Assembly: GCA_973895155.1 (NCBI GenBank)
Contig: OZ316891.1
Location: 7,999,875-8,063,874 of the forward strand
Origin: Marsupella aquatica
Lineage: Eukaryota; Plantae; Marchantiophyta
Direction of reading: 5' to 3'
DNA length: 64,000 nucleotides
Part shown: piece after piece, positions 26,940 to 50,138 of the stretch
Layout of the letters: each line of letters starts with the position of its first letter
How positions within the stretch are numbered: the stretch's first letter is position 1
Notes under the pieces: generated by a model
What the model saw: only the letters and a program-made list of their open reading frames with translations
Told to the model about the DNA's origin: nothing
The model's database searches: none
Made by a program: the position numbers and the translations under genes

Positions 26940-29900
26940 TCAGCTGATGAGAAACAAAGGAGAAAAGTTTGAACTAAAGGCCAATTTCAATTCAGCCCTG
27001 ATTTCTGAACTGCCTAACCGCACCGTCAGCTGGTTTTCATAAGCCTCCAAGACTTGCACCAGGGTATTGGATACAAGAGGATTCAATGGCAGCTGTCTAA
27101 GTAGATCTGAAACCTCAGCCAGACCACGAACAAATTCCTCTTCGTGAGGAGGGTCTGCTCCGGTTTCTGAACAGTTTGTCTCGATCCTAGAACCAACAAA
27201 TGTAAGGAGGCCAAGAAGACTGCGGTACAAACTTCTGAATATTTCTTCATGATTTGTCACCCCACCAACCCAATGCACTCTGTCGTTGATCTGCATGCTT
27301 AATTGAGCACACAACCTGGCCCGCTCCAAATACTTCATCCTCCACTTACACAAAAAGGGACCATACCAAGGAGCTAGTACTGCTGCGTCGCCAGACTGTT
27401 TCACGAACTTTTCAAGATGCAGACAACAAAGCTGCACGAACAACAACTCCTCCCCGTGATGATTGTCGATTTCCTTGTCAAATAGGTGGCGGACCAAGTT
27501 AATATCACCACCGGCAAAATCCGTACTATCCTCAGATCCAAGCACCCACTCGGCAAGAACCTCATAGTATTCTCTCCACTGCCCAAATTGAGAACTTAAA
27601 TACTCAAATGTGACTTGAATAACTTTCTCCACCTGAGCTGCCACAACATCATTTGTTTCGGAGTCTGCCTTTGTAATGACCTTCAGTATTGAAAGAGCAA
27701 GTTTCTGCCTTAGATCTAAATCTTCATCCTCCAAAAGCTTGATGCATATACACCAAGAAGAAAGAATGGCTCTGGCGTACCACTCTACATCTGCCGGTTC
27801 CAATGAATCATTAGAACCTCCAAGTCTGTGTGAATCTTCCATAAACTTATGCCCAATCCAATTTGCGTCTTCGAGCATACCCGAAGCCACAATGGCTTCA
27901 GAAGTGGCTCGTCGAAAGTTTACTGCTTCACTGGCTACAGAATGTACCTTTGCTATGTCTAACCATACATTTACTGAAGCCTTGAAAGTAAACATATTTT
28001 TTGTGAAAATCACATTTGATGGACAATTGAGTCGACGAACATGCGTCTCAGCTCCATCCACAGGCAAATGATTTTGAGATATCCAAAGAGTCCCCTTGCT
28101 TAAGTCACCGGACTTCATACGATCAACAACACCGACTGTTATGTGCCGTAACGAGCCTCCAAGGCAGCGCACTGCGACTTCCTTGGTTTTCATTTCTTTT
28201 GACGTCTTATAGATCTTCAAAAGAGAGACCCACAGTTCTTGAGAAGACATCCCACTGCCCCATACAGAATCATTGTTTAGGCTCGTTTGTATTTGCCCTT
28301 CCTGACTGGTAATCATTCTGTCCCTGCTGTCAATCAGTGTCCAAGAACAGATCACTTGGAGAATGCGACGGATGCAAGGAGAGTGGGTTTCGACACACAA
28401 TCTTTCAATAATGAGAGGTCGTAGGAAGTTCCAGGTGCCTGTGCGCTGATTAATTTGTAAATGTTGTCCCCCTAGTGATTTCTCCTGTTCAGCCCACTGG
28501 AGGCCACAATGCTTCTTTAATACCTTCAAAGTAGCCAAACGGACTTCATAACTAGAGTCCACTAAAGCTTGTTTCAGCCTTCTCACAAACTGCCCACATT
28601 TCTGAGGGCCGCTGCAAGAAGATCCCACTGCACCTCCAGCCTGTACCTCTGATTTGTCAGTTATGTCCCCAGATACATGTATGACCAATCCTGCATCCTT
28701 CTCCTCGTCAGATATCAGATGATAAGATTGGAAGGACCCTTTTGTGAGCATTGTCTGGAAATAGAGCTTTGCTGCTTTCTCACGTAAACTAACTTTTGTT
28801 GAATCGTGCCAATTCAGATCTTCGGTGGAGTCATCCAAACACGCACAGCTCAGCGCACCTAGTAGAACTTGAAGGTGGTTGATAACTCTCTCTGGGTTTG
28901 ATATTTTTTCTTGGCAGAGCTGTGCAAGGCAGAGCAAACCACCAAGCATATCCAAAAATGAACCAGTTACCATGTAACAGCCACAACATCTGATGGATCC
29001 TAGCCATAACCGTTCTTCAACAGCCTGAGATACTTGTGATACAATTTTACATCGCTCATCTATGTCAAGCAAACCAGTGCAATTGGAAGCTAAAAGTGTG
29101 CACATCTGTAAGAGAATGCCATGTATAGCATTGAAGGAACAAGCCTGAAATACTCCAGTCACATGAGATCCATTTGCCCGACTGTTGACGGGGTTGAAAA
29201 CTAGTTTGTGCTCAACGATGCTCAGTTCCCCTCCTGTCGTTGAGGTTGAGAGAGGTAAACTCTGAGCCAATTGCAGTATAACTATGGATAAATCCTTAGC
29301 AGCAACAAGAGGAGCTAAAGCTTGAGAAGCTAAAACTCGCATGTGCAAGTTCCGTTGTGTTGCGCACTGAGACACATAAGGTATAAAAGCTGAAGGATTT
29401 AACCAATCTTCAACATCACTGTTGATGAAGGAAGGTTTTAAGCGAGATAAGATAATCAAAACGGGTCCCAAACTAGGATGAAGTAAACTTCCCATTCCAC
29501 TTCCTGCACTTGCGCCATGTTCCAACTGCCAAGTTGCTTCCTGCAGCTCTTGCAAAAGGAAAGGATGTAGAGTTGGGTATCTGTCAAAGCGTAGCACAAA
29601 GTATAATCCAATCAGCAATAATAAGAAGGAAGGTTTTAAGCGAGATAAGAAGAAATTGGCTTGCCAAAGCAGTGATTCGCGAAGCAGGAACCTCTGATTG
29701 AGCTTGTCTTCATCATCACCACTGATATAAGCGGAGATAATTGCGAACAATGAATTTCTTACAAAGCCAGACTATCGACATTCTGAATTATGAAGTGGAC
29801 TGGTCAAAGAGCACAATGCTAGGAGGGCTGTAAAAATATAAATTTTGTGACATATACAGTACTTTGAAGTCTCCAACTAAATTTTCATGCATGAATCTCA

Positions 29901-32900
29901 ACCATGCTCTTACTACTAGCATCCCACTATGCATGATCAGTTCTAATTAAGATACCCAACAACAGAACAGGACTGAAAAGGAAAAGAGGAAGAGAAAAGC
30001 ATTGACTATATATAAATACCTATGGAAAAACTCAAATCCGGTGATTGCACGTCGAGCGGACTCTCGTTTGAAGACATTCAAGAAACCAATAGTCCTATGT
30101 ACCAGTGCCGTGAAAGCAAGCGTAGCACTATTTCTTACTTCCCAATAAGAGCATGAAAATGCTTGTATGGCAGTAATAAGACCCTCAGCACAAAAGCCTG
30201 ATGTATCAGTTGCCAACATTGTGTCATGGAAGGCCATTCTTAGCACATTAAAAGCATGGACAGTTGGGACCACTCCCTCATCTCGTGACTTCAAAGCTAC
30301 TGGGGTCCCGTCTTTTCTCATCTCAGAAAGATCTTCTCCGGAGATGCCGTGCACTGGCAGGACGTGTTCTGTTTGCCGCACCAGGTCTTGCTTTTGTTCC
30401 ACCTCACTCGTTGTCTTGCCGTGCCGTCTTGACTTACTGAGAAATCCCTTGCAAGTGTCCAACAACCAGCGCATCCCCATTGGAAGAAGTTTTTTGGGTG
30501 ACCCATCTGGTTCTGCGAGAAACAGAGCCAGAAAAGCAGGGGGAATACCAGCACTTCTTCTCAGCAGGTCATCCACAACCTGACCTCTCGCACCAGTATG
30601 ATCCATGAGTTGCTGGAGCCATATTTCGGGCAGCTTATTGAGCCTGGAAACATCGATACCAAACAGTAAGCTGACAAAGCCTCAAACCTGACAAATTATC
30701 TACTGTGACTAGCATTCAGCACGAGCGCAATGATTCTAGCAACAATACTCGGAGTCATCCCACGAAATTCAAAATGAAGAGTGGCCAAAACAATTGACGG
30801 CGAGAGAGAAACCGACAGGTCACAAAGCAAGTTTGTTGTCCGGACTAAGAAAACAGACCAGGGATCACTTGACCGCAACAAACGATCAGAAAGAGCAATG
30901 AAGCCAGTCCGAGTCTTGTCAATGGCACCATTATGTTTCATGCTCAGAAGCACTTGCACAAAATGACTTCCAATGGCCTCAAGCTGTTTACCATCCAACA
31001 TTGGACAAGGCCTGGTTATGTCAGGCGATGATCGACTACTTGGAGTTCCATTTTCTCCTTTGCCCACTTTGGGTATGCTAGGACTCCCCGGCAGAGGCAC
31101 TACTCTTGCAATGGTTCCCAGGAGGAGGCTGACCTGTATTCACCAAACGAATCATTCTGGTCAGGTGAGTCAATTTGGGATAGAAAGCATTCCAGTATTA
31201 GAAGTGCCGATACTAAAACCGCACAGGTTCATACAAATTGCAGATTAATTGTTTCGAAAATAACCGAAAAAAAAAACCTCTGCCAAGATTAGACATTCAG
31301 TTTCCGAACAAGGAGAACCAACAGATTGCTAAACCATTCAATTGAATGAAGAGAATAGAATTGGTAGTGGAGGTGAATACCTCCTTCACTGAGAGCCAGC
31401 AACCAACCATGACCATCTGCTCTGCTGGAGCAAGGCATTCCTCATAGTATCCATCATTTCCTGCTTCACTGTTGGCAGCCATGAAGTCGAATTGAAAGGA
31501 GTCATTCTCCGAGATCACGCCACCGGAAAGTGAAGAGCCATCTCGTTTAACTTGCAGATTTAGCGCATCCGCAGATACTACCCACAGGGCCAGAGATGTT
31601 ACGCGTAATAGGAGACTGAGAAGCCTCTTCAATACATCACAAAGCTTTTCAGAACAGAACTGCATGGCTGAAGATGTCCAATCTATTTCTTCAACTGTGT
31701 AGCGTAATACTAGCAGCACTCCGTGTACAAAGCTGTGAGTACAAGCCTTGAGTAGGTCTTTCTCTCCCTCTTCAATTCCCCATTGAAGCCAATCATTTAG
31801 TGACTGCAGGTATTCGACAGTGACTTCACCCGGCCCCTGATCAGAGTTGCGCTCAGCTTCGGCAATAGATATAATAACCACCTTCGGATCCGGATGAACC
31901 TTCAAAGACCAGCCCAAGTCTACCACGTACTTCCGAAAGACAAGACGAAATGCAAGAGCGCCAGCATCGCTTTCTCTAACACGAGGACTGTTTACCATGT
32001 CCTTCGCCCACTTCAAGAGCCCCTCAACATTACTCTCCGAATCTAAGCCAGGTAAAGGCGTGGGATATTGTATAAGAATTCTATATGCTCCCTCCCGTAA
32101 TCTATCCCAACTATCCACCAATGCACCAACAACAACTGGTGTGAAGTCTACTGAAAGCAAGACAGGATGGTAGGGAGAAAAGTTCACTTTGTCAAGATAT
32201 GGAGACGATGTATAGCGACCAGATCTTTTCTGCCAAAACTGCTTTAGACTCCACACCTCAATAAGAGCGTTGAAGATCTCCATAGCCATAGTTTTCCGTT
32301 CATATGGAGCAGATGGATATAATGAGCAAATTAACATTCGGCTCAACCAGTGCATGAATTTTTCCATCTGTTTAACAGTAACTGCTGACTGGTCTCTACT
32401 CATCAGAGACCCTAAGTCTTCACCTTCTTCTTGGTCGAAAACACCCCCGTTCCCACTGGACAGTAATTGTATTTGCTTCAACTGAGACGACCTCAAATTG
32501 TCTGCTTTTTGTTGTCTCTCAACTGCTGTCCGCACGCGCAGGAAAAACTTTTTAAGGAAGCTAGTCCATCTCATGCGAAAGGCTGTAGAAGCGCAACGCA
32601 TGTTGAGAGGCAAAGAAATTTTCAGTAAACACAATTCAAATGAGGAAGGCATCGACGCTGTTTTGGGACTCAGACACACCAACTCTGCAGCATCGACACG
32701 CAAGCCATCCTCTTTGTGGGTCAAAGCCATCAAAAGCAGGTTAACCGGGAACTCAACAGGTTGATCCTTTATATAGAGTACTGCTTGTGACACCAGTAAA
32801 GACGATCCGACTACACTAGGGTTATCTTCAAATTCTCCTTCATGCTCAGAATCCACTTCATGAGCTGCACTGAGCTTTTGTTCTATTGAACCATCCACTA

Positions 32901-35205
32901 AGCCAAGAGATCGGGCTACCTTGAGAACTGAAATTAGTAATATAACCTGCTGCTCTACTGCGAACAGTCCAGGCAATCCATGAGCTCCTTCAAGCTCCTC
33001 CCAGCTCAAAGAACTTCTCGGAGTGCTACCATCTTTACCATGTCCATCCAGAATATAAGCAAGCAGGACAGGTAGACTGTCACAGTCAATCTGCATTGCG
33101 ACTGGGAGGGCATACGTAGTCAGGTTATTCCGGAGTCTGCCATCGCCTGTTAGCAAGCCTGAAAGTAAAGGCGGTATCCAGGATCGTCTGCCAACCTTAT
33201 TGCCTTCGTTGACCCCTTCGGCACTCCAACAGTCCTCTTTCAGCCGCTCGAGGAACGTCTTGAGAAAAGTGCTTGCAGAAGAACAGACGTCATCATCGGA
33301 AAAGGCATCAATTGTGTGAAAAAGAAGTTCTGGACTCATCAGCAGCATGTTTCTTGCCCCAATCCTCATTGCTAAGGAAGCTAGAGGTACGTATTTTCCC
33401 TTCCTGTACCGGCCAGTAGCTAATAGATCACTCGCAATTTGTCTCAGGAAGATGTCGCTTCCTATCTCATCCACGATCTTGCTCTCTGCGGTGTCGCTGC
33501 AGTTGATCAAATTGTCGTCCACAACTACTGACGCTTCAACATACCTGTCCCGCTTGTGGACCAACTGCACATCTATAAACAAATCGAAAACAACTTGCAC
33601 TTGTTTCACTGTTTGGGTCAAAGGATCTTCCCAATTGTTCCAGATAAGCTGTAGAACTTGGCTGGTCCTTGCTACAGGTAAGGGATCATAGGGGCAAACG
33701 GAGATATTATGCTGAATTAAGGACTGTTCAAAAGCTTTGAAGGCGGAATGAGTAAGATGCCCACAAATTGAGGTTTTGATTTGCTGGAGACATATTTGCA
33801 TTGCTGTGAACGCGTGGAACATAAAATGACTGTCGACAGAACTCTCGCAAAAATTGCACAGAGCTGGCAGAATACCGTCATAAAGCAGAGTCCATACTTC
33901 TTGCCTATGAGCCTCTTTCTGACCAATATCGTCCTGCTGCTGGTGTGATGGGACTCCAGATTCAGAACAGTTCTTAGAACCTTTCTTAATCCGTAAAAGG
34001 TTGACGTTTAGCACATTTCGAGGGATAGCTGTGAGAATGCCCCTAAAAAAGCAAAGCCTGCCGAAGACCGATAATTTCGTCACCTCTTCTCTCAGACTGC
34101 TTTTGCGGTAAGACTTTACGGCTGTTTCCAAAATACCGCGCTTGACAGAGGCATCTGTCAGTCCCTCATCTGGCGAAAGCACTTGATAGGAATGATGAGT
34201 TGAAGGGAAAGCTGCAGTGGTCAGCATTAGAGCCAGGCCCTCTTGAGACGAAGCCAATTGAGCGGCCGCGGCCAGACCAACCCCAGCTGCTACTAAGCAA
34301 TCCCTGGACAGAACGGCTGTTTGAAGGACATCCAGTAAGCAACACACAATTGCTCCATAGAGGCCTGCTCCTCCTCCATTCTGTGTTGGGGAGCTCTGTC
34401 CCTCTTCAGACCCTGGAGACTGGGAATCAGCAGAAACACATGTCTCACAGCTACTTTTATCGTCGTTGAATTGAGCAGTAGGATCATAAAATTTGTCAGG
34501 GAACTGCTGAAGAAGGTAATATATAGACGACAATGAATCCTGGCACTCCTCCATGTCAGTGGGAGTAGGCCGGCCCCCTTCCAGAGCATGCTGCAAAACA
34601 CTCTGGACATCAAGGCGAAGCGAATTGCTCATGCAAGGAGCACAGAAATGAGCAACCTCTTTCAGGACACCCGGCTGTGGCAGTTGTGCCAGAGATGCAG
34701 ACACAGCCACCACGGCAAACCTACGCAGCTTGGCTCCCCCGGGGGACCCGTAGTCTTGGCAGCATTCCATGAAGGCATTCTGCAAGGGCACAATGTGGTG
34801 CGGCGGCACATGGGAGAGTGTGGAGAGCAAACCTCGTTGTAAAGGGCGGGAATGCTCCACAAACAGAAGCTCGACGTACACCCGAAGGGCAACCTTCAGC
34901 AACTCGTCCTCTTCCACCTTTTCCTCTTCCACCTCCTCCTCCTCCTTCTCACGGCTCTGCTTTTGGCCCAATTCTAGTTGTTGTTGTTGCTGTTGTTGTA
35001 TCACCGAAAGAAGGTTGATGCCCAAATTCTTCACCAAGGAGACCTGCGCATGAATGGATGGCTGACGCTCGAAAGTGGCGAGCTGAGAGGCGAAGGAATG
35101 GAGTGCAGGCCAGGCCTCCAAAGATTGCAGCGTGCCCTCGGGCAGAAACACGGCGTGCTCCGCCCAGCGCTTGCGTCGCTGTTGGGATCTCCACCGCCCT
35201 GCCAT
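26940..35205 (-). CDS. THADA: THADA / Trm732 homolog (ARM/HEAT-repeat, DUF2428; tRNA 2'-O-methylation cofactor of Trm7/FTSJ1), 4 exons, ~2454 aa
   Basis: Exons 35205-31381, 31133-30859, 30643-30020 and 29580-26940 with GT-AG introns and consistent phases. Motifs: MVGCWLSVKEVSLLLG, MKHNGAIDK, LRRSAGIP, VHAFNVLR, WEVRNSATL, FEFFHRYPTLHPFL, FDKEIDN. PolyQ/polyE tract near the N-terminus. Confidence 0.95.
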
Positions 35206-35466
35206 CGCTGCGATGCTCTGCTCCTCAGGAGCTGTGTGCAGCAGAGCAGCGTTCTTAAACCCTACTGTTGTGGTCCTCCTCCATAATCCCCCACGACTGA
35301 CTGCCTCGTGCTTTCGCTACATTTGTGAAAAGCGACGTGAATCTATTCTCCTAAAACCTCGAAGGATTCGCACCTGGACCATTTCGCATGTGATGGTGCT
35401 CTCGCTCTCCACCCTCGCTCTAACCAGTTTCTTGGGGTTTATGTGGTTTTTTTTGGTTGAGTAAGG

Positions 35467-36033: not shown

Positions 36034-39000
36034 TGTTAGATATTGCTCTAGTCTTGTGATTCATGAGCTAATTACAGTTAGGCTAACTCGGGTTAGAACT
36101 TAACTATTGTTAGCGGTAGTGCTGTTGTGTATATAGCCAGGGCTGATGCAGACCCTGGTGGAACTTAGGCTCATTGTTACGGAGCTAGTTGAAAGATAGG
36201 GAGAGCTTGTGCTGTGGATGCTTGGTATGGCCGGTCGGCCTATAGTGCAGTAAAGCTCTTGTGTGTTCCCGTGGACGTAGCCTCATGAGAAGGTGAACCA
36301 CGTATCTCTCTGTGTCGACTATTGTGCGTTGGATGGTTCATGGGCTTGCCGTTACGAATGTCGTCTATGCTCAACAAGTGGTATCAGAGCATGCCTGGGA
36401 GGTGACGAGGTTTTTTCGTGACAGGTTTTCCAGCGTTCATTGTCGATGGTACATTCGGAGTTTCGTCGCATGAAACTTGAATGTGTGTGGCTGTGCAGAT
36501 AGGTTAGTGAGAGGGCTTTCTAACGGTGGTTAGAACTTGCTGATCGGTATCCGAGGTGCGGAGGAATCAAAGTTTGCGTTGTTCAGGTTTTATTCATGTT
36601 CGACGGTATTTCGGGGAAGAGACCAGAGATCACATTTTTCAATGGTGTGAGCCATGCGGTGCTGGAGGGATCGCATATTATTGCTCAAGTTGAAGGTTGA
36701 AGCGAGCTGGTCATTTCGGTAGCTGGATTGCTGTCGAGTTGTTACCGAGTGCGACGTGACGAGTGAAGGAGGCGTTCAGGTTTTTTCACAAGCTATGGAG
36801 CTTGTTCTCATCTGAACCGGGTTTCTCTTCGTGACGTCCGACTTGGTGGAAGAAATGTGAAGTGCTAAGGCTCAACGGGTTGATCGCGGTGAGGCGGTCG
36901 TTTTGAGCCTGGGATTGGCACTTGACGCGGAGTGAAGACGACACAACAGAAATTTTTACTCTGCTGGAGCTATAGACTGTGCCGGTGAAATTCAACAACA
37001 TTTTGGGTCGGCGGCATTCATTTTTCTCGTTGGAAACGACAATTTGGCACTGCAGAAAGGCGAGGTGCAACTGTGACTTAGGGCACAGAGAAAACGACAA
37101 ATTAAGAAATAGTACTTTGTCCGTAATTTCCGCCGTATTTAGCGCTTGGCTTGTGTGAGTAGTGAGCTCACGACCCACAGGTGGCGAGGTCTTGGCTTGA
37201 GTGAGTAGTGAGCTCACGACCCACGGTCCATGAGATTTTGATTTGAGTGAGAAGATATTCCACAACCCACGGTTCGTGAGTCATGTGGGTATGCCTAGGT
37301 AGGCATGTACCCACGACCCACGATCTATGAGGGGTCTTGATTATTATTGAGTTTGGGGGCGGATAGCCTACGACCCATGGTCCGTGCGAGATCATCTTGG
37401 AAGCTTGGCTCGCACCCACCACCCACGGCCTGTGGCCTCTCAACGGATTTTGGTTTCGATTTTTTGTTTTTCAGTGTTTGGACTCCTAGCTTCGTGGGCT
37501 ACGCGGCGATGTTGAGTTTTTTTAGTTTTATGAAAAGCTTCAAAAAAAGACGTTTTTTCATGATTGTTTCATATGAGTGACTCGGAGAATACTGGAAGAA
37601 TTGGCGTCGGTGGAGCTTCAGGATCGCGACATTCAAACGGAGAGTCAAAGGAGGAGCTGCTACTGTTTGAGGAGGAACTAGTGACACCGATACGATCACC
37701 CGTGCCGCGTGCAGTGGAGGAAGTTGTTCTACTACCTGAGTTGTCGGTAGTGGGGAAGAAGAGGGAGATGGCTAGATTCGGAAGAGTGAAGTTTGAGGTG
37801 GAAAAGTACGATGGTCGTACTGATTACTTATTGTGGGAGAAGTAAGTGAAGGGTGTTCTTCGTGCAATGGGCTTAGCTCATCTGCTCTCTTCGCGAAAGC
37901 AGTATGATGGAGAAGAGGATATCTCAGAGAAGCAGTGGAGACAGGAGCAGGTGATTGCTGTCAACGCAGTGATGCTATATCTCAAGCCGCACATCATCAA
38001 GCAGCTGGATGATTATGCGGATTGCGCGTCACTATTCAAGGCTCTAAGAGAGAAGTACTACCGGGAAGATGCGTCAGACCGGCTGTACAAGAAGTCTCTC
38101 TTGATGAGCCTCAGGCTCAAGGAAGGGAGCAAGATGCAGGATCACTTGGATGAATTTGACAGTCTTGCGGTGGATCTGTCAAACCTGGGAAAAAGAGTTG
38201 AAGATGAGGATAAGGCCTTGCTTTTGCTAAGCTCCTTACCGCCGTCATATCAGGGCTTGAAATAGGTGCTCTTGTATAGAGATTTGAAGTCCATTTCGTA
38301 TAATGAGGTGGTGAGCTCATTACTGTCTGATGATGCTCAGAAGAAGCTGGGTCAATCACAGAGAGCATCTTCTTCTGGCACTGCGCTCAATGTGAACAGG
38401 GGAAGAGCAGCACAGCGCACGAATGGGCAGAACAGGTTTAGATCTACATCACGGGGGAGATCTAAATCCATAGGGAAATCGCAAGAGAGGAAGCCTCTTG
38501 CATGTTATTGTGGCAAGCCTGACCACATGAAAAGGGATTGTCGAGTAAAGGTCCCTACTGCCTCTGCTAACGCGGCATCGAGCTCGCATGAGGTAGATTT
38601 ACTCGATGATGATGACATATTGTGATGTCAAGGTTATGCTCTCAACGTAGTGTCAAATCCAGGTAGTGATGACTGGATTCTAGATAGTGCATGTACTTTT
38701 CATATTTGCTCTAGGAGAAATTTTTTCAGTTCTTACACGGTTTCCAACGGGTCAGTGTTGATGGGAAATGGAATCCCATGTCAAGTTGTTGGACTTGGAT
38801 CTGTAAGATTTCAGATGTTTGATGGTGTTGTGAGAACGTTGAGGAATGTGAGACATATTCCTAGCATGATGAAAAATCTCATTTCACTTGGAGTTTTAGA
38901 AGCAAATGGCCATCAATGGAGCTCTGCTAATGGTGTCCTTCAGGTTTCAACTGGTACTAAAGTCGTATTGAAGGGAAAGAGACATAGCAATCTATACGTT

Positions 39001-42000
39001 TTGGAGGGCAGTGTAGTATGTGATGAAGCCAATGTAACCTTATCTCATGAGGAGATGGCCCGGCTGTGGCACTTCCGTTTGGGCCACATGAGTGAAAAGG
39101 TTTGGCTATTCTTAAAAAAAAATGATTACTTTCTACTTTGCAGTCTTGTAAGTTAGAATTTTGTGAGCACTGTGTGCTTGGGAAGCAGCACAGGAAACCC
39201 TTCGGAGTTGGAACTCACACCAGCAAGGAGGTACTTGAGTATGTACATAGTGATGTGTGGGGTCCAGTCCCTACTCCCTCACATTCTGGACGGTTATACT
39301 ATGTCACGTTCATTGACGATTACTCAAGGTATGTGTGGATATACTTTCTACACAATAAGTCTGATATTTTTGCCACTTTTAAGGAGTGGAAAGCCCAAGT
39401 TGAGAATCAGACTGGTAATAAGGTGAGATATTTATGATTGGATAACGGCGGTGAATACAGTTCTGGTGAATTTGGAACGTATTGTAAGAAGCAGGGGATT
39501 ACCCCCCCCATCTCACAACTAGTTATACTCCTCAGCAGAATGGTGTTTCTGAGAGACTCAATCGAACACTATTGGACCGCTCGAGGAGTATGTTGAGTCA
39601 ATCATGCTTACCACATGAGTTTTGGATTGAAGCTGTCAACACTGCAGCTTATTTGGTAAATTTTTCTCCATCCAGTTCTATTGGATTCAGACGCCATTTG
39701 AAATGAGGTATGGGCGCCTAGCAGATTACTCACATCTGAGGATTTTTCGATGTGATGCTTATGTGCTTACACCTTCCCAGCTTCGATCCAAGCTGGAGTC
39801 CAAGTCGAAGAAGTGCATTTTCCTTGGCTATCAGAAAGGTGTGAAGGGTTATAGGTTATGGGATCCAGTAACCTGTAAGCTAATTGTCAGTCGAGATGTG
39901 TCCTTTAATGAATCCAGATCATCAAAGGAGGGGGAGAGTTCTCAGGACTCCCATACTGACAAGGAGAAATCTCCCATCCCGGACCAGGTTGAGGGGGAGA
40001 TTAGTCATGATTTTGTTCATGACAGGAGAGATGGAGAAGCTTCGGGTTTGGAGTTGGTTCCTGTGATGGAACAAGAGGAGCAGATTGTTGCTGGGGTACC
40101 TCAAATTCAGCCAGCAGCAGCAGCAGCAGCAGATCAGCCTAAGTCATCTACTAGAAGAACTTCCAGTCGTTCTACTAGAGCTCATACTAGGTATGGTCAA
40201 TGGGCAGACTCATCTAAGCTAGATGATATTGACATTGCACCTGATGATGATGACATGGCTTTGATCTTGGAAGAAGGAGAGCCTTCTTCGTACAGTGAGG
40301 CTTGTGCTTCAGAACAGATGCATGAGTGGAATGCAGCAATGCAGAGGGAGTTGCAATCTTTGAGTGACAACAAGACATGAGAGCTGGTGGAGCTTCCAAG
40401 AGGTCAGCAAGTGATGGACAGCAAGTGGATTTATAAGTTGAAGGACAGTCCTTCAGAGGGTGGAGATAAAATCTACAAGGCAAGGCTTGTTGCCAAGGGG
40501 TTCACTCAGGAGAAAGGAGTGGACTACAATGAGGTCTTTTCACCGGTGGCTAAGTATTCCACAATTCAGATCTTGTGTCAACTTGTTGTGTTTTTGAATC
40601 TGGTGATGGATCAAATGGATGTTGTTATAGTTTTTCTCTATGGCAACTTGGAAGAGTTGATCTTCAAGAGACAGCCACTAGGCTTTATGAAGAAGGGTCA
40701 AGAGAACTTAGTTTGCAAATTGCTCAAGTCTTTGTATGGATTGAAGTAGTCTCCCAGACAGTGGAACAAGCGGTTTGATGATTTCATGCTTGCTCAAGGT
40801 TTTATAATGATGGTTTATGATCCTTGTGTGTATACAAAATCAGTCAAGAATGATGTATTTGGTTTTATCATTCTGGTGATCTATGTGGATGACATGCTGA
40901 TTGTGGCTAAAGATCAATCTGAGGTTGACAGTCTCAAAGCAAAACTGAGTGTTGAATTCGGGATGAAGGATCTTGGTAAGGCCAAGAGGATCTTAGGGAT
41001 GGAGATTTTTAGGAACTCTGAGACTGGACAGTTGTACTTGAGTCAAGGCCAGTATGCGAGGAAAGTACTTGCACAATTCAACATGGAGAACTGTAAGCCA
41101 GTGAATATTCCTTTAGCTTCACATTTCAAGTTATCATCGGCTTTCTCTCCTACAGATGTTGTGGAGAAAGGTCTGATGGCTAAGATTCCTTATGAGAAGA
41201 CAGTAGGCTGTCTGATGTATTTGATGACTTGTACTAGGTCTGACTTGGCCCTAGCGATAGGCAAGGTTAGCAGATTCATGTCAAATCTAGGGGAGGTACA
41301 CTGGGAAGCTGTGAAATGGATTCTCAGGTATGTGAAAGGAACAGAGGACTATAGATTACTATTTGATAACAGATCAGATAGAAAGTTAGTTGGCTATGTA
41401 GATTCTGACTATGGAGGCTGTCTGGACACAAGGAGGTCAACAACTGGATTTGTATACACTCTTGGAGGAGGATGTATCAGTTGGAAATCTACCTTCCATA
41501 AGTGTATATCTCAGTCTACTATAGAAGCAGAGTATGTTGCAGCAGCAGAAGCAACAAAGGAAACAATTTGGTTGGACAAGTTGATCGCGGAGATGGGTTT
41601 AGAGCATGGCAAAATGACTCTAAACTGTGATAGTCAGAGAGCTCTTCACTTGGCTGCTAACCAGGTGATGGATAGCAGGGTGAAGCACATTGATATCAGG
41701 TACCATTTTATCAGGCAAACAGTGTCTGATAAAACTTTTGAGCTAGTCAAGATTGATGGAAAGCTCAATCCCGCTGATGCCTTTACCAAAGTGATTCTTT
41801 TGGAGAGTTTCTCAAGACACCGTGCTACTTTGCAGGTTTTGCAGTTGTAGTGCAAGTAGAGTTATTTAGCAATGTGTGTCTATTTGTGTATGGATTACTC
41901 ATTCCTGTTTGGCTATGGCTTAGTTCTAGTTAACCCTTAGTTAACCCTTGTGGTTTTTAGGGGGAGACCTGGTTTGGTGATTGTCTAGAACTTCCCGCTG

Positions 42001-42400
42001 AGGATCCATATGGTAGCATTTAGTCCAGTCCCCAAGACAAGAGTCAAGGGGGAGTTTGTTAGATATTACTCTAGTCTTGTGACTCATGAGCTAACTACAG
42101 TTAGGCTAACTCGGGTTAGGACTTAGCTATTGTTAGCGGTAGTGCTGTTGTGTATATAGCCAGGGTTGATGCCAGACCCTGGTGGAACTTAGGCTCATTG
42201 TTACGGAGCTAGTTGAGAGATAGAGAGAGCTTGTGCTGTGGATGCTTGGTATGGCCGGCCGGCCTAGAGTGCAGTAAAGCTCTTGTGTGTTCCCGTGGAC
42301 GTAGCCTCATGAGGAGGTGAACCATGTATCTCTCTGTGTCGACTATTGTGCGTTGGATGGTTCATGGGCTTGCCGTTACGAATGTCGTCTATGCTCAACA
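36034..42400 (+). mobile_element. Ty1/copia LTR retrotransposon (element A, Tnt1/Tork-like), full length but degenerate
   Basis: LTRs 36034-36376 and 42057-42400 (TG...CA, ~96% identical by eye). TSD gtttg/ttttg (4/5). PBS tggtatcagagc (tRNA-iMet) at 36379-36390; PPT just before 42057. Order is gag (ATG 37573)-zinc knuckle-PR (WILDSAC)-INT (HSDVWGP)-RT (YVDDML)-RNaseH (KHIDIRYHF), with several stops and frameshifts. Confidence 0.97.
37573..41850 (+). pseudogene. gag-pol of copia element A (disrupted)
   Basis: ORF fragments 37564-37845, 37846-38265, 38266-38625, 38650-39156, 39138-39437, 39703-40380, 40387-40749 and 40786-41850 carry successive gag/PR/INT/RT/RH motifs. Confidence 0.93.
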
Positions 42401-42873
42401 TTTTGTGGCTTTGATTGTATCTCAATTATGGCCCTGTTTTGACACACCTTAGTAAGGCATCTCAAAGCAACCCAGTTAGGGATGATGGCTTTCGGTCATA
42501 GCTTTCTCAAAGAGTTGCGTAAAAGCGTTTTTATATATTTTCTTCACTAGCCTCTAGAGTGACTTAGGGTCATGGCATGTGACCAATCTTTATGGCAAAA
42601 AGTTATGGATCATGAATGAATTTGGCAGTCCATAAATTTTTCTTTCAGAAACATGCAGTGAAGGTCCATAAAATTTTGAGGTTTGAGACCCACTCATTTG
42701 AACCACTACATTACAGACTATTGTGTCTAAGTGCAGGATCCCAGGAAGCCAAACCTGCACTCAAAAAGGGTATCCACTATGTTATGAGTGCAAGGGATAC
42801 GCTTTTATGCACTTCTCCATGTGTGCATGGTGTTGGGTATTTACTCTTACGTCTAGGTTAGGTATGACGTGGT

Positions 42874-42960
42874 TGGTACAACAACGTGGGTTGGTACAAC
42901 TACGTGGTTAGGTACAACTACGTGATTAGGTACAACTATGTGGTTAGGTACAACTAAGTT
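42874..42960 (+). promoter_or_regulatory. 18-bp tandem repeat in the U3 of the element B 5' LTR (5 units; 7 units in the 3' LTR at ~48914-49036)
   Basis: Unit ~taggtacaactacgtggt, containing GTAC and ACGTG cores. The regulatory role is inferred from its U3 position. Confidence 0.7.
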
Positions 42961-44367
42961 GCACACTATATCATAAGAGGCATGTGTGCTTGGAGAGGTA
43001 GAACCAAGGCTCATTGTTATGGAGCCACTTGAGAGATAGGGAGAGCTTACACTGTGGAGACTCGGTATAGCTGACGGGCTTAGAGTTCAGTAAAGCTCTC
43101 TTGTGTGTTCCCGTGGACGTAGCCTCAAGGAGGTGAACCACGTATCTCTTGTGTTGACTATTGTGCGTTGGATGGTTCATGGGCTTGCCGTTGCGATCGT
43201 CGTCTATGCTCAACAATTGGTATCAGAGCATGCTTGGGAGGTGACGTGTGTTCGTGACGGGATTTCATTACGGTTTTTCCAGCGTTGAGTGTCGGTGGAT
43301 TTCCCGGAGTTCCGTCGCATGGAACTTGGAGTTTATGGGCTCAACGGATAGATCGGGGCAAGAGCTTTCTAACGGTGTGAAGAAATCGCTGAACGGAGCT
43401 CGTGGTGCAAAGAGATCTAAGTTTTCGTCGTTCTGGATTTTGTGAAGAAAGTTGGCAATCGACTCGGAGGGAGAAGCGTCAAGTGTTTTGACTCAACGGA
43501 GAGATTGAGGCAAGACGATTGTTTTGAGTCCGGGATTGGCTCTTTGATGCAAAGAGGAAGGCTAAGCAAAATCAATTACCTTGTTGGACTTGGTGACGGC
43601 ACCAAGTGCAATTGATCAACATTCGTTGTTGACAAGGTAACATTTTTTCTCTTTGAAAAACTGATTCGAAATTGGCTATGGCAATTGAGAGAAATCTGTC
43701 ATCTTTACCAATTTTTTTCTCCCTCGTTCTTTCCTCGTTTTGGGTGCTTCTTATATCGATCTTCACCGCCTCGAAGTCTAGTTTCCAAATCTGAAATCAG
43801 ATCTTGATTTCGTCAAAACCCGAGTGAGATATCTTGCGTTTGGTGTCGAGGGATACATTCTGCCGTGTGTATTTTCTGCGCGCGCGACCAGATTTCGACA
43901 ACGAAGGGTGGTAGGGGGTTTTGGGGGTTTGAGGACACGTGTCAGCCCCTCGATTGTTCTTCCAAAATTCCCACAGGGCCTGTACAAGGGTCATAGAATA
44001 TTCCAAAAAACCATAGAGCTATTTTTTGACCGTCCGACAAAGATTTCATCCGCCGAACGGTAACTTTTTTGGTTATTTTTTGGCGAGGTCGTAGCCATTG
44101 AAGTTGGCAACGCGGCGCACCAATCACATCGTAATTCCAATAACGGGTTGTACTTGGTATTTCGGTTATTCCCTGAGGTGGTCAAAACGGGGGAGTTTCC
44201 CAAGGTTTTACCCACCTCGACCGAAATTTGAATAACTTTTCCGTCAAATTTCGATTTTGATTTCGGTTTTCAGTATTGGACTCCTAGCTTTGTGGGCTAC
44301 GCGGCGGTGTTGAGTTTCAAGTTTTTTGAGAAGTTGTGAAAAACAACAATTTTTGTGATTTTCTCAT

Positions 44368-47300
44368 TTGAGTGATTCGGAGGAATTTTTCGAAGACGTG
44401 GAACTTGAAGCACGAGGATCACCGCGGCGGTTTCAGGGGCAGAGAGAGGAGCAGGAGGAAGAGCATGTGATACCGATACCATCACCGGTGCGGCGTGTGG
44501 TGGAGGAAGCAGTACTACTACCGGAGCTCACGGTAGTGCCAAAGAAGAAGATGGGGACTTTCAAGCTTGGGGGACCCAAGTATGAAGTGACAAAGTATGA
44601 TGGGCGCTTTGACTACTTGCTATGGGAGAAGCAAGTGAAGGGAGTGCTCTATGCGTCAAGGATGGGCCAACTGCTGAGCCCTCGTGAAGACGATGTTGAT
44701 GAGAAACAATGAGACCGCATGCAGGAGCAGGGAGTGTGGTGTGTTACACTCTATCTCATGCCTCCCATCATCAAGCAGTTGGGTGCACATAAGGATTGCA
44801 TGTCCTTGTTTGCGGAATTGCAGAGCAAGTATCACCGCAAGGAGTTGTCGAACCGGCTCTACACTTCCTACAAACTCATGAGTTTCAGGATGAAGGAATC
44901 CGGCACAAAGTTGCAAGACCATGTGGATGCTTTCAACGACATGGTCGTTGACTTGGAAAACCTTGGGGAGACTTTGAATGATGAGACGAAGGCTCTGCAG
45001 CTTCTTAGTTCATTGCCTCCATCTTACCAGTCCCTATCACGAGTGTTGTTGCATCGTGATAGGGATACCATTTCATATAATGACGTGGTAAGTTCTCTGC
45101 TTAGTGATGATCTTCAGTAGAAGATGCACATCATATCACAGCCTTCATCATCTGGTGCTGCCCTCAATGTTAACCGTGGGAGGGGTATGCAGCGACCAAC
45201 TGGGGACCGTAGAACCCAGTTTAGATCTAAATCCAGATCTAAGTCCAAGGGTAAATCCCCTCAGAGGAGGCAGGTGACATGTTGGAAGTGCAACCAAGTT
45301 GGACACTTCAAGCGAGACTGTAAGGGAAAGGCAGCGAAAACTTCATCGGCAAATGTGGCTAGGGCTGATGGAGAAGCTGATTTACTCAATGATGAGTATG
45401 TTTTATGAAGTCGGGGGTATGCCCTGTGCACGTCATCTAGGAGAGCAGATGATGTGTGGATTCTTGATTGTGCTTGCTCTTTTCATATTTGTTACATTCG
45501 TGAGTTTTTTAGTTCTTACTCTATTTCAAACGGTTCAGTTCTGATGGGAAATGATCACTCCTGTCAAATTGAGGGAATTGGGTCTGTGAAGATTCAAATG
45601 TTTGATGGCGCTGTGCGCACAGTGTCCGGAGTCAGGTATGTACCTGGCATGCGTAAGAATCTGATTTCACTCGGTGTGTTGGATTCAAATGGTCATCAAT
45701 GGAGCGTTATTGATGGTGAACTTCAAGTCAGGTCGGGAGAGACAGTGATTTTGAAGGGGAGTAGACAAAAGAATTTGTATGTGTTACAGGGCAATACTGT
45801 ATGTGGAGAGGCCAATGTAACCAAGTCTCACGAGGAGATGACTCAACTGTGGCATTCACGGCTAGGCCACATGAGTGAGAAGGGTTTGGCTATCTTACGG
45901 AAGAATGGACTCATTTCTGATTTGCAATCTTGTAAATTAGAGTTTTGTGAGCATTGCATTCTTGGAAAGCAGCATCGTCGTGCTTTTGGTGTTGGAACTC
46001 ATCGTTCCAAAGCGGTTCTTGAGTACATACATAGTGACGTGTGGGGTCCATCCCCGACTCCCTCACACTCTGGAAAGTTGTACTATGTATCATTTATTGA
46101 TGATTACTCAAGATTTGTGTGGATTTATTTCATGACGCATAAGTCTGATGTCTTGTCCATTTTTAAGAAGTGGAAGGCCCAGGTGGAGAATCAGACTGGA
46201 AACACGATCAAGTGTTTGGATACAAGGGTGAAGAGTCTGAGGTCAGACAACGGCGGGGAGTACACTTCAATGGAATTTGAAGAGTACTGTTCAGAACAGG
46301 GGATAACTCGCCATCTCACCACAGTTTATACTCCACAGCAGAATGGTGTCGTTGAGAGGCTCAATCGGACACTGTTGGAGCGGTCACAGAGTATGTTGAG
46401 CCAATCAGGTTTACCACAAGAATTTTGGGCAGAAGCTGTCAATACCGCAGCTTATTTGGTAAATCTTTCTCCTTCTAGTGCTATCAATTTCAAAACGCCG
46501 TTTGAGATGCGCTATCAACGACAAGCAGACTATCATGGCTTGGTAGTTTTTGGAAGTGATGCATATGCTCTCACACCAAAGCAGAATAGGACCAAGTTGG
46601 ATCCTACCTCCAAGAAATGTGTTTTTCTTGGGTACCAGAGTGGTGTGAAAGCCTATAGGCTATGGGATCCTATTGCCTGTAAGCTCGTTGTCAGTAGGGA
46701 TGTTTCCTTCAATGAATCCAGATTATTGAAGGAGGGGGAGAATACTCAGGTCTCCCGTACTGACAAAGGAAAATCTCCTATCCCGGATCTCGTTGAGGGG
46801 GAGATTGGTTATAAGGTGCATGACCGGAGAGAAGGAGTTGCTCCAATTATGGAGCTGGTTCCTGTGCTAGAGGAACCAGAGGAGTTTGTTGATGCTGGTG
46901 AACAGCAAATGGATGCTGTTGAGCTTCAAATTGTACCAGCACACGCAGATCAACCAAAGTCATCGGCTAGAAGAACATCTGGTCGCACTGTACGTGCTCC
47001 ACCAAGGTATGGACAGTGGGTTGATTCATCTCAACTGCAAGAAAATGATTTTGCAGCTGATGATGAGGGTGATGCGTTAATTTTGGAAGAAGGGGAACCT
47101 TCTTCATTTCATGAGGCAAGTGCTTCAAAGGAGAAGCAGAAGTGGACTGCAGCAATGCAAACGGAGATGCAGTCACTAAAGGACAACAAAACTTGGGAGC
47201 TTGTTAAGCTGCCTAAGGGTCAGCAAGTGGTGGACAGCAAGTGGATTTACAAGTTGAAGGATAATTCCATAGGAGATGGATCGAAGGTCTACAAGGCTAG

Positions 47301-48680
47301 GTTGGTAGCAAAGGGATTCACACAAGAAAAAGGTGTGGATTACAATGAGGTCTTCTCACCAGTTGCTAAGTACTCTACAATACGACTATTGTGTGTACTT
47401 GTTATAATGTTTGGTCTGCTGCTAGATCAGATGGATGTTGTCACAGCTTTCCTCTATGGCACATTGGAAGAGGTGATCTTCATGAGACAACCGCTAGGTT
47501 TTGTGAAGAGAGGACAGGAGGAATTGGTTTGCAGATTGCTGAAATCCTTGTATGGGTTGAAGCAGTCACCAAGACAGTGGAACAAGCGGTTTGACGATTG
47601 GATTCGGTCACAAGGTTTTCACAGAAGTGTATTTGACCCTTGTGTGTATTTAAAATCGGTAAAGAATATTGTATTTGGGTTCATTATTTTAGTACTTTAT
47701 GTGGATGATATGCTAATTGCAGCCAAGGATAGGTCTGAGATTGTTAAGCTCAAGGCACTGCTTAGTACAGAGTTTAAGATGAAGGACTTAGGGCCAGCTA
47801 AGAGGATTTTGGGTATGGAGATCACTAGGGACTTGGAGGCTGGCAAGCTATGGTTGACGCAGAGCAGTTATGGGAGGAAGGTAATTGCAAGGTTCAACAT
47901 GGGGAATAGCAAGCCAGTAAGTACCCGTTGGCTCCACACTTCAAGTTATCATCAGCGTTCTGTCCTACGGATGACACAGAGAAGGGGTTGATGTCAAAGG
48001 TTCCGTATGACAAGGCAGTGGGGAGTCTCATGTATTTGATGACTTGCACTAGACCTGATCTTGCCATGGCTATGGGCAAGGTAAGCAGGTACATGTCAAA
48101 TCCAGGGAAGGTACACTGGGAAGCAGTGAAGTGGATTATCAGGTACTTGAAGGGTACCGTGGATCATGGTCTTTTATTTGATGCGAATGCAAAGAATGCT
48201 AAATCATTGATTGGCTATGTTGATTCTGACTATGGACAAGATTTGGACCGAAGGAGATCAACAACAGGATACGTGTTCACACTTGGCGGTGGATGCATAA
48301 GTTGGAGGTCTACTTTGCAGAAGTGTATTGCTCAGTCTACTACAGAAGCGGAGTATGTTGCAGCTGCGGAAGCAGCAAAGGAAGCGATTTGGTTGGATAG
48401 ACTTATCACTGAAATGGGATTGCCACAGGGGAATGTGAAGCTCCATTATGATAGTCAAAGTGCGCTCCACCTTGCTATGAACCAGGTGATGGACAGCAGA
48501 GTGAAGCACATTGATCTCAGGTACCATTTTATCAGGCAGGCTGTGTCTGATAATTTGTTTGAGCTAGTCAAGATTGATGGTAAACTCAACCCGGCTGACG
48601 CATTTACCAAAGTGATTCCTTTGGAGAGTTTCTCTAGACACCGTGACGTATTGGAGGTTTTGCAATTGCATCACAAGTAG
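44368..48680 (+). pseudogene. gag-pol of copia element B (two gag nonsense codons, a gag/pol TGA shared with element A, one RT frameshift)
   Basis: ORFs 44368-44712, 44719-45120, 45124-45408 (CWKCNQVGHFKRDC knuckle), 45454-47991 (PR-INT-RT) and 47928-48680 (RT end-RNaseH). Confidence 0.93.
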
Positions 48681-50138
48681 AGTTTTCTTAACATTCATTG
48701 TAATTACTGATATATGCTCTTCCTCATTCCTATGTATTAAGCTACGGCTTAGTTCTGGTTTGCTCTAGTTAGAGAGGGAAACCAGTTTGGTTTTTGTCCA
48801 GAACTTCCCGCTGAGGGATCATATACATTGGCAGTATTACTCTCCCCTAGACCAGAATCAAGGGGAAGATTGTTGGGTATTTACTCTTACGTCTAGGTTA
48901 GGTATGACGTGGTTGGTACAACAACGTGGGTTGGTACAACTACGTGGTTAGGTACAACTACGTGATTAGGTACAACTATGTGGTTAGGTACAACTACGTG
49001 ATTAGGTACAACTATGTGGTTAGGTACAACTAAGTTGCACACTATATCATAAGAGGCATGTGTGCTTGGAGAGGTAGAACCAAGGCTCATTGTTATGGAG
49101 CCACTTGAGAGATAGGGAGAGCTTACACTGTGGAGACTCGGTATAGCTGACGGGCTTAGAGTTCAGTAAAGCTCTCTTGTGTGTTCCCGTGGACGTAGCC
49201 TCAAGGAGGTGAACCACGTATCTCTTGTGTCGACTATTGTGCGTTGGATGGTTCATGGGCTTGCCGTTGCGATCGTCGTCTATGCTCAACACATGGTTTC
49301 ATTACCCAGTAAGTGCATGGGAAATAGCATCACTTTATCAGGGCACAAATATCAGGTCAAAGATATCAGGGTATCAGGGTATGAGGAGTGCTATCAGGGC
49401 TTTGTGATGTGCTTCTCTCTAGGTCATCAATAGTTGTACTAGAGCAATATGAGACAATGTCAAGCTACACACACTATCCACAATTGCAATTAGGGTTTAA
49501 TGAATCAATTTGTTCTAGTTCAAGAACCCATGGGAGAATTTACAATTACCCATTTTGGGGGCTTAACAGCAATGACGACCTTTCATTTGATCTCGTTTTT
49601 TAAATGTATAACCCTATATGCAGCTGGAAAATTCTACTACATCATTGTTTTGTTTTATTAGACACATTAAAATGAGAGTATTTATCTCCTAGTAGTGAAG
49701 AATATTAAATGTCTCATGACTCATAAAGGAAGAAAAAAGTAAACAGAAATGGGTATGATAAGTGATAAAAATAAAGAAAAAGACAAGGGGCCGGAAGGTA
49801 CTAAGCATCTCCAGCGGTAGACCATCAGGGCCCACAGCCGCTATTCTCTCTCTTGTAACTGTCATTGTTTGGCAAGAATACACCCTGTTGGTGCCTCCAT
49901 CCCGTAATTTTTTGCCCCTACCACAAATACATTGCATGCCGACCTCCAATTTTTGGCAGAATGGTGGCAGAGGAGTAGCGCCCCTTCGCCAGCCTCCATA
50001 TGGATCCACCATTGAGCGTATACCACGCGGCAGCATTGGCGCCTGGGTCCAGCTTGGGGGCGAGAACTGGCACCTAGTTGGGGTCCAGCCTCGTGTTGAA
50101 CAGTGCACCTAGTATGTGAAGTTGGGGAGGTGCATTGC

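Follow-up and report, generated by a model that had tools for sequence, protein, structure and literature searches.

Inherited in-frame stop closing gag in a separate Ty1/copia lineage, probably from liverworts

A 64,000-nucleotide window of the genome of the liverwort Marsupella aquatica (GenBank assembly GCA_973895155.1, contig OZ316891.1, positions 7,999,875 to 8,063,874 of the forward strand) contains two decayed long terminal repeat (LTR) retrotransposons of the Ty1/copia group, arranged in tandem and denoted here A and B (Table 1). In both elements, gag ends with a TGA codon after a DLLxD(D/E)xxL motif, and pol continues beyond it in the same frame. Here we show that gag has an inherited stop at this position throughout a distinct Ty1/copia lineage, with pol following in frame in A and B.

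Both elements possess LTRs, a primer-binding site, a polypurine tract and a 5-bp target-site duplication, and Pfam matches place gag, zinc knuckle, protease, integrase and reverse transcriptase (RT) in the order typical of Ty1/copia. The original prediction, made from the window sequence, that the two elements share an in-frame TGA held in its details: the distance from the stop to the protease Trp is 16 codons in both, the GYAL motif after the stop is kept with third positions changed at three of the four codons, and the remaining stops of A and B fall at different places. The two Gag proteins are 56% identical, with the same base at 14 of 58 four-fold sites, and Pol is 68-73% identical (18/39 and 28/64 four-fold sites the same). 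A and B are themselves dead copies, and two decayed copies could share a stop by chance; chance is excluded because 22 of the 23 homologues that reach the knuckle end at the same residue. The shared TGA is inherited and does not represent two chance mutations.

These homologues come from a search with the Gag of B, which returned 32 proteins of 157-503 amino acids, 23 with a zinc knuckle recognised by pattern. The 22 that share the stop column of the window elements are 51-82% identical to B and terminate 27-33 residues past the knuckle, 21 of them on a Leu within a DLLxDD(Y)xL-like motif. The remaining knuckle-bearing homologue, P0020, ends about seven residues sooner, and none of the 23 extends into the protease. 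The other nine matches are truncated or are Marchantia gene models without an intact knuckle. Among 25 additional cluster members, all near-copies, 17 end at the same residue and eight end earlier. The lineage is likely one of liverworts, because the sole named matches are from Calypogeia fissa and Marchantia polymorpha.

Judged by sequence identity, relatives with fused gag and pol are all distant. A search for the fused form yielded 60 matches of 631-2009 amino acids, all at most 41% identical across the junction, and among the 120 of 846 matches listed in a second search for long forms, identity over the whole region does not exceed 53%; P0110 (61% identical), also among these 120, begins inside the protease. 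The two closest protease matches found with HMMER at all lengths (86% and 84%) begin downstream of the stop. None of the 50 retrieved proteins that share 45% or more identity with this Gag has the protease motif, the best carrier of which is 36% identical. In a quick IQ-TREE analysis of 22 matches, A and B with the first 45 of 101 fused Gags (P0020 and the nine partial matches omitted), the 24 stop-ending Gags lie on one side of a branch (SH-aLRT 99) and the 45 fused Gags on the other, a grouping partly built in through the selection of rows. The stop-ending Gags group by themselves, on a long stem, among fused relatives that carry no labels, and A and B fall on opposite sides of the first fork of this group.

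Distant relatives were found in at least 79 metagenome loci (at most 36% identical) and in three loci of prokaryote assemblies, and no related viral loci were found. Both motifs are present in 42 of these 82 loci, always in one frame; 40 are open, and two have a stop at differing places. In these two, L031 (4495-5178) and L048 (130-936), both distant and of the single-ORF type, the stop is located in the knuckle-protease linker, at different places, and close relatives have sense codons, so these stops look private. The three prokaryote-assembly loci (L080-L082) are plant-type copia fragments on short contigs of Corynebacterium pilbarense and Vibrio ouci assemblies and likely represent contamination.

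The claim that the TGA is fixed among relatives thus holds for its position, in 22 of 23 Gags; the codon itself and frame 0 of pol were seen only in A, B, sequencing run X1 and one contig of run X8. Across 264 contigs of X1 covering the junction of B, no variant of at least 2% of depth is listed at the TGA, and there is no indel; the stop site lies close to the margin where differences get listed in this contig comparison. The one X8 contig that spans the junction has a single difference, away from the TGA. Runs X14 (two contigs, with 14 and 11 differences, three rows of which are listed) and X18 (one contig, not covering the stop) do not contribute to the reading of the stop. In a wider comparison of four runs, with 40 of 106 variant rows listed, none of those listed falls on the stop. 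The codon after the TGA of B, AGT in the window, is AGC in about 95% of contig depth.

The 16 codons after the stop look translated because seven of the nine variants listed there are synonymous, where 26% would be expected (P 0.002 by allele and 0.045 by site); at one four-fold site, each of the three alternative bases is among them. Such signs of protein-level selection, as originally proposed for this segment, are found when all variants are taken together; when only transitions are counted, the excess of synonymous changes falls short of significance (P 0.27), which counts against them. In 124 fused relatives, the place of GYAL is a hydrophobic patch (positions -14 to -11, 60-83% hydrophobic). 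AlphaFold models the 140 post-stop residues confidently from about residue 11, and cannot place GYAL inside or outside the protease because residues 1-8, which include it, have pLDDT below 50. The Foldseek matches to retroviral proteases have E-values no better than 0.008, and a PDB sequence search gave no match.

It is very improbable that the stop is an inactivating lesion, whether two dead copies acquired it convergently or it marks a non-autonomous, Gag-only lineage with a decaying pol that borrows Pol from other elements. A and B do bear further stops and frameshifts, B combines near-identical LTRs with broken genes, as fits a defective copy mobilised in trans, and long Pol homologues are few among the 120 listed matches. 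Against a lesion, open Gag ORFs (open reading frames) as diverged as those above have this same end point, conservation of Pol between A and B is seen both in amino acid identity and relative to four-fold sites, and 11 of the 19 listed protease variants are synonymous. This explanation is already largely refuted.

The probable source of Pol is a Gag-Pol fusion, produced by the few ribosomes that do not terminate at the UGA. Most ribosomes would halt at the UGA and release Gag; a near-cognate tRNA would sometimes decode it, producing Gag-Pol, which the protease would then cleave, as is general among retroelements. The outcome would be an excess of Gag, which angiosperm copia elements obtain by splicing. 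Of the original readthrough proposal, the fixed stop, the in-frame pol and the signs of selection after the stop stand, and the stem-loop stimulators find no support. Selenocysteine at the UGA was set aside since, to our knowledge, land plants lack the pathway. In a plant reporter, the residue incorporated at UGA was Trp (one of PMC9744471, PMC2806351, PMC2829016 and PMC2754532, available in part).

Alternatively, unspliced RNA could encode Gag, and a minor spliced RNA, with the stop removed in an intron, Gag-Pol, which follows the logic of Ogre and is the reverse of that of EVADE; we consider this unlikely. Splicing near the protease is a conserved means of ratio control in Arabidopsis copia elements (PMC5580714, available in part), the intron between the two ORFs of Ogre is spliced (PMC6317226), and A and B have in common a donor-like GTRAG 105 codons upstream of the stop and one AG at +36. 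However, this is the only AG common to both between the stop and the Trp, with none before GYAL; it is preceded by C in A and by G in B, lies past GYAL, the codons of which look selected, and is in phase 1, whereas the donor-like site is in phase 0. The 60 nt upstream of the stop are just 28-32% U. Two Marchantia gene models (P0027 and P0033) link this Gag to pol, but lack the protease active-site motif and are read as predictor artefacts. The spacing from knuckle to Trp, 44 and 45 residues here, is the same as in fused relatives (median 43 across 124), which also argues against splicing.

Other non-standard routes to Pol, namely, an internal promoter, initiation at a non-AUG codon or reinitiation just past the stop, bypass by ribosomes or editing of the UGA in RNA, are together improbable as well. 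They draw on the absence of a recognised leaky context at the TGA and on precedents, Tca2 with a cryptic promoter at its junction and a bypass of unresolved nature (PMC2194720, available in part), and an internal ribosome entry site or bypass proposed for Sireviruses (source among the four listed above for the plant reporter, available in part). Ordinary internal initiation would yield no protease because, counted from the stop, the catalytic Asp is codon 20 and no in-frame AUG occurs until codon 46. Neither a near-cognate start in the first post-stop codons nor a matched pair of take-off and landing codons is common to A and B. We know of no nuclear UGA-editing enzyme in plants, which we count against editing. 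Free Pol would, moreover, require a separate route into the particle (PMC2194720, in part).

Several points weigh against readthrough of a fixed UGA. Run X1 is possibly the window's own sample; the protein ends reveal neither the stop codon nor the pol frame of the 22 homologues; and the lack of TGA-to-TAA variants is weak evidence because the G of the TGA is outside CG and CHG contexts, in which three of the four listed G-to-A variant sites of X1 lie. Long Pol proteins of the clade are nearly missing, P0110 being the only one among the 120 listed matches. The stop contexts, TTG-TGA-TGT-CAA in A and TTA-TGA-AG(C/T)-CGG in B, that is, UGA-U and UGA-A, fit none of the three leaky classes, UGA-CUA/CGG, UAG-CAR-YYA and UAG-G plus pseudoknot, described in the available part of PMC3159437. 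No conserved structure near the stop was found in the comparison of A and B. Finally, the local sequence of Tca2 did not direct readthrough in Saccharomyces cerevisiae (PMC2194720, in part), a warning that readthrough by local signals does not follow from a UGA being fixed.

The stem-loops originally proposed as stimulators correspond to inverted repeats that are indeed present, at different codons in A and B, and are not homologous. Over the 100 nt that start at the stop, folding energy does not improve on that of shuffled sequences (z +0.62 and -0.63), and the hairpins were rejected as a common signal, being neither homologous nor significant. One 80-nt window over the stop of B has a z of -3.9, and the same window in A has +1.9; an Rfam search gave no match. 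A 7-bp long-range duplex, pairing +9 to +15 with +238 to +244, begins 8 nt past the stop and has two compensatory changes between A and B. It is alone of its class among 251 common helices of at least 7 bp (1 in 124 windows of a 4.1-kb alignment), by class criteria that were set after the duplex was seen. As a stimulator it is only a weak lead because both arms coincide with protein motifs that are conserved, and one pair is broken in the close relatives P0227 (PDM) and P0228 (PTM). We tentatively entertain, as a rather doubtful extension of the readthrough scheme, that a liverwort-wide copia clade swapped the splice-based Gag/Pol switch found in copia elements of land plants for UGA readthrough with a signal outside the three known classes, either the conserved nascent peptide DLLxDDY(A/V)L or the duplex 8 nt past the stop. 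If true, the relatives in Marchantia polymorpha would open such readthrough, and the unresolved bypass of the Tca2 type, to experiments in a model plant.

Just ahead of the stop stands (D/E)Y(A/V)L, and seven codons on it has an echo in (G/E)YAL-C (45391-45429 in B), with the TGA in register with TGC; this echo may mark a protease cleavage motif. Linker length lends no support to its origin by duplication.

A close counterpart in arrangement is Tca2 (pCal) of Candida albicans, also Ty1/copia, which likewise has gag-UGA-pol in one frame and in which Pol needs a bypass of unresolved mechanism; Tca2 differs in being fungal and in having a conserved predicted pseudoknot after an 8-nt spacer as well as a junction AUG, neither of which was found here (PMC2194720, in part). 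The likeness is one of arrangement, and no relationship is claimed. In Tj1, Tcry1 and Tosmo1-3 of fission yeasts, too, gag and pol are separated by a fixed in-frame TGA, for which an origin in an ancestor with a single ORF has been proposed; they are Ty3/gypsy elements, and the Tj1 group has the leaky GAA-TGA-CT, unlike the TTR-TGA-(A/T)G of the window elements (bioRxiv 2022.12.06.519325, available in part). MuLV likewise has an in-frame stop at the border of gag and protease, which sets an excess of Gag with about 5% readthrough (cited in PMC2194720, in part); it is, however, a retrovirus with UAG, a purine-rich spacer and a pseudoknot, whereas the window elements are copia with UGA. As in readthrough retroelements generally, a single in-frame stop separates gag and pol (codon and frame from A, B, X1 and the X8 contig); neither a leaky 3' context (UGA-C, CAR-YYA) nor a conserved 3' structure accompanies it here.

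Among plant elements, Tork/Tnt1-type copia and EVADE have the same domain order, a 5-bp target-site duplication and a primer-binding site of the tRNA-Met type, to which we presumably can assign those of A and B. RT is up to 63% identical to that of fetched relatives, and several fused relatives are labelled 'TNT 1-94'. The lineage with the fixed stop departs from Tork, in which a single ORF prevails (69%), as it does in most plant copia lineages in REXdb (PMC6317226 Additional file 5). The same source lists GAG:s:PROT, with a single stop, for 10% of SIRE, 80% of Chlamyvir, 12% of Athila and 10% of Tekay, and among copia only for this minority of SIRE. The arrangement is therefore less novel than the original proposal implied, separation of GAG and PROT by a stop being already catalogued in some plant LTR lineages. 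In SIRE/Sirevirus elements, gag is long and encodes a coiled coil beyond the knuckle, total length is about 10 kb and an extra 3' ORF is usual (sources available in part); the window elements, in contrast, are 6.4 kb long, with Gag ending 27-33 residues past the knuckle and pol separated from the 3' LTR by about 200 nt, which leaves no space for an env-like ORF. Copia elements of Arabidopsis, such as EVADE, obtain their Gag excess by splicing (PMC5580714, in part).

The lineage-wide gag stop is real, and separation of gag and pol by a stop is itself already known, from MuLV, Tca2, Tj1 and some plant lineages. No description of such a fixed stop for any copia clade of liverworts came to light in a literature search outside which most subscription papers lay; 'Marchantia' is absent from the main text of the REXdb paper (PMC6317226), and a recent review gives, in its available part, frameshifting and splicing as the sole Gag/Pol strategies (PMC12786077). 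If an entire clade has its gag stop fixed, this would bring readthrough into the biology of land-plant copia elements and would offer a natural plant UGA-recoding cassette that lacks a known leaky motif. Annotation pipelines will call intact members of such a clade pseudogenes.

Table 1. Features of elements A and B in the window (position 1 is its first nucleotide)
Feature	Position	Strand	Remarks
Element A	36034-42400	+	complete, decayed Ty1/copia
A, 5' LTR	36034-36376	+	TG...CA; against 3' LTR, 331 matches, 13 mismatches
A, primer-binding site	36379-36390	+	TGGTATCAGAGC; 2 nt past 5' LTR
A, gag	37573-38622	+	C-terminus ...DLLDDDDIL; Pfam Retrotran_gag_2, translation; two private stops inside
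A, gag stop TGA	38623-38625	+	lineage-wide; context TTG-TGA-TGT-CAA
A, pol	38626-41850	+	protease, integrase, RT, RNase H; opens in gag frame; interrupted by private stops and frameshifts
A, post-stop 16 codons	38626-38673	+	ahead of protease Trp
A, long-range duplex	38634-38640 with 38863-38869	+	7 bp; weak lead
A, inverted repeat	38656-38679	+	
A, 3' LTR	42057-42400	+	
Element B	42831-49291	+	complete, decayed Ty1/copia; tandem with A
B, 5' LTR	42831-43215	+	against 3' LTR, 384 matches, 1 mismatch, one 36-nt repeat indel
B, primer-binding site	43218-43229	+	
B, gag	44368-45405	+	zinc knuckle; C-terminus ...DLLNDEYVL; Pfam; two private stops
B, gag stop TGA	45406-45408	+	lineage-wide; context TTA-TGA-AGT-CGG
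B, post-stop 16 codons	45409-45456	+	SRGYAL...DDV; ahead of protease Trp
B, pol	45409-48680	+	protease, integrase, RT, RNase H; about 840 codons open, then one frameshift near 47930
B, long-range duplex	45417-45423 with 45646-45652	+	7 bp; weak lead
B, inverted repeat	45429-45456	+	
B, 3' LTR	48871-49291	+	

The Pfam order in B is gag_2, zf-CCHC, Pol_BBD, gag_pre-integrs, rve, SH3 and RVT_2; the RNase H part has no Pfam match and was recognised by eye in the translation. The gag of B is 81% identical to P0004, an intact Gag of 347 amino acids, and has TTG as its first codon, in place of ATG in A and Met in P0004. The target-site duplication of B is CATGG, and that of A, with flanks GTTTG and TTTTG, has one mismatch in 5 bp. 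The LTRs of B differ at one of 385 aligned bases despite the two private gag stops, the TTG start and the pol frameshift; B was likely already defective when inserted. The protease motif of B (45466-45477) is DCAC, as in P0227 and P0228, where the usual form is DSGC or DSAC.

The LTRs of A and B are 86-87% identical in their 3' 220 nt (36157-36376 and 42997-43215) and dissimilar in their 5' halves, that of B carrying an 18-nt tandem array. The N-terminal Gag extensions of A and B have a PVxRxVEExVLLPEL block in common, although the Gag cores belong to different branches. The common 3' part of the LTR and this block suggest recombination between subfamilies. The leaders, from the primer-binding site to the gag start, are 1.1-1.2 kb each and may harbour an intron or a translation signal; the leader of A (36391-37572) contains 17 AUGs and a 46-nt tandem repeat at 37145-37251, and that of B (43230-44367) contains four AUGs. 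Element A lies about 700 nt upstream of a THADA/TRM732 gene (26940-35316, minus strand) with several long exons (Pfam DUF2428 and TPR_Trm732).

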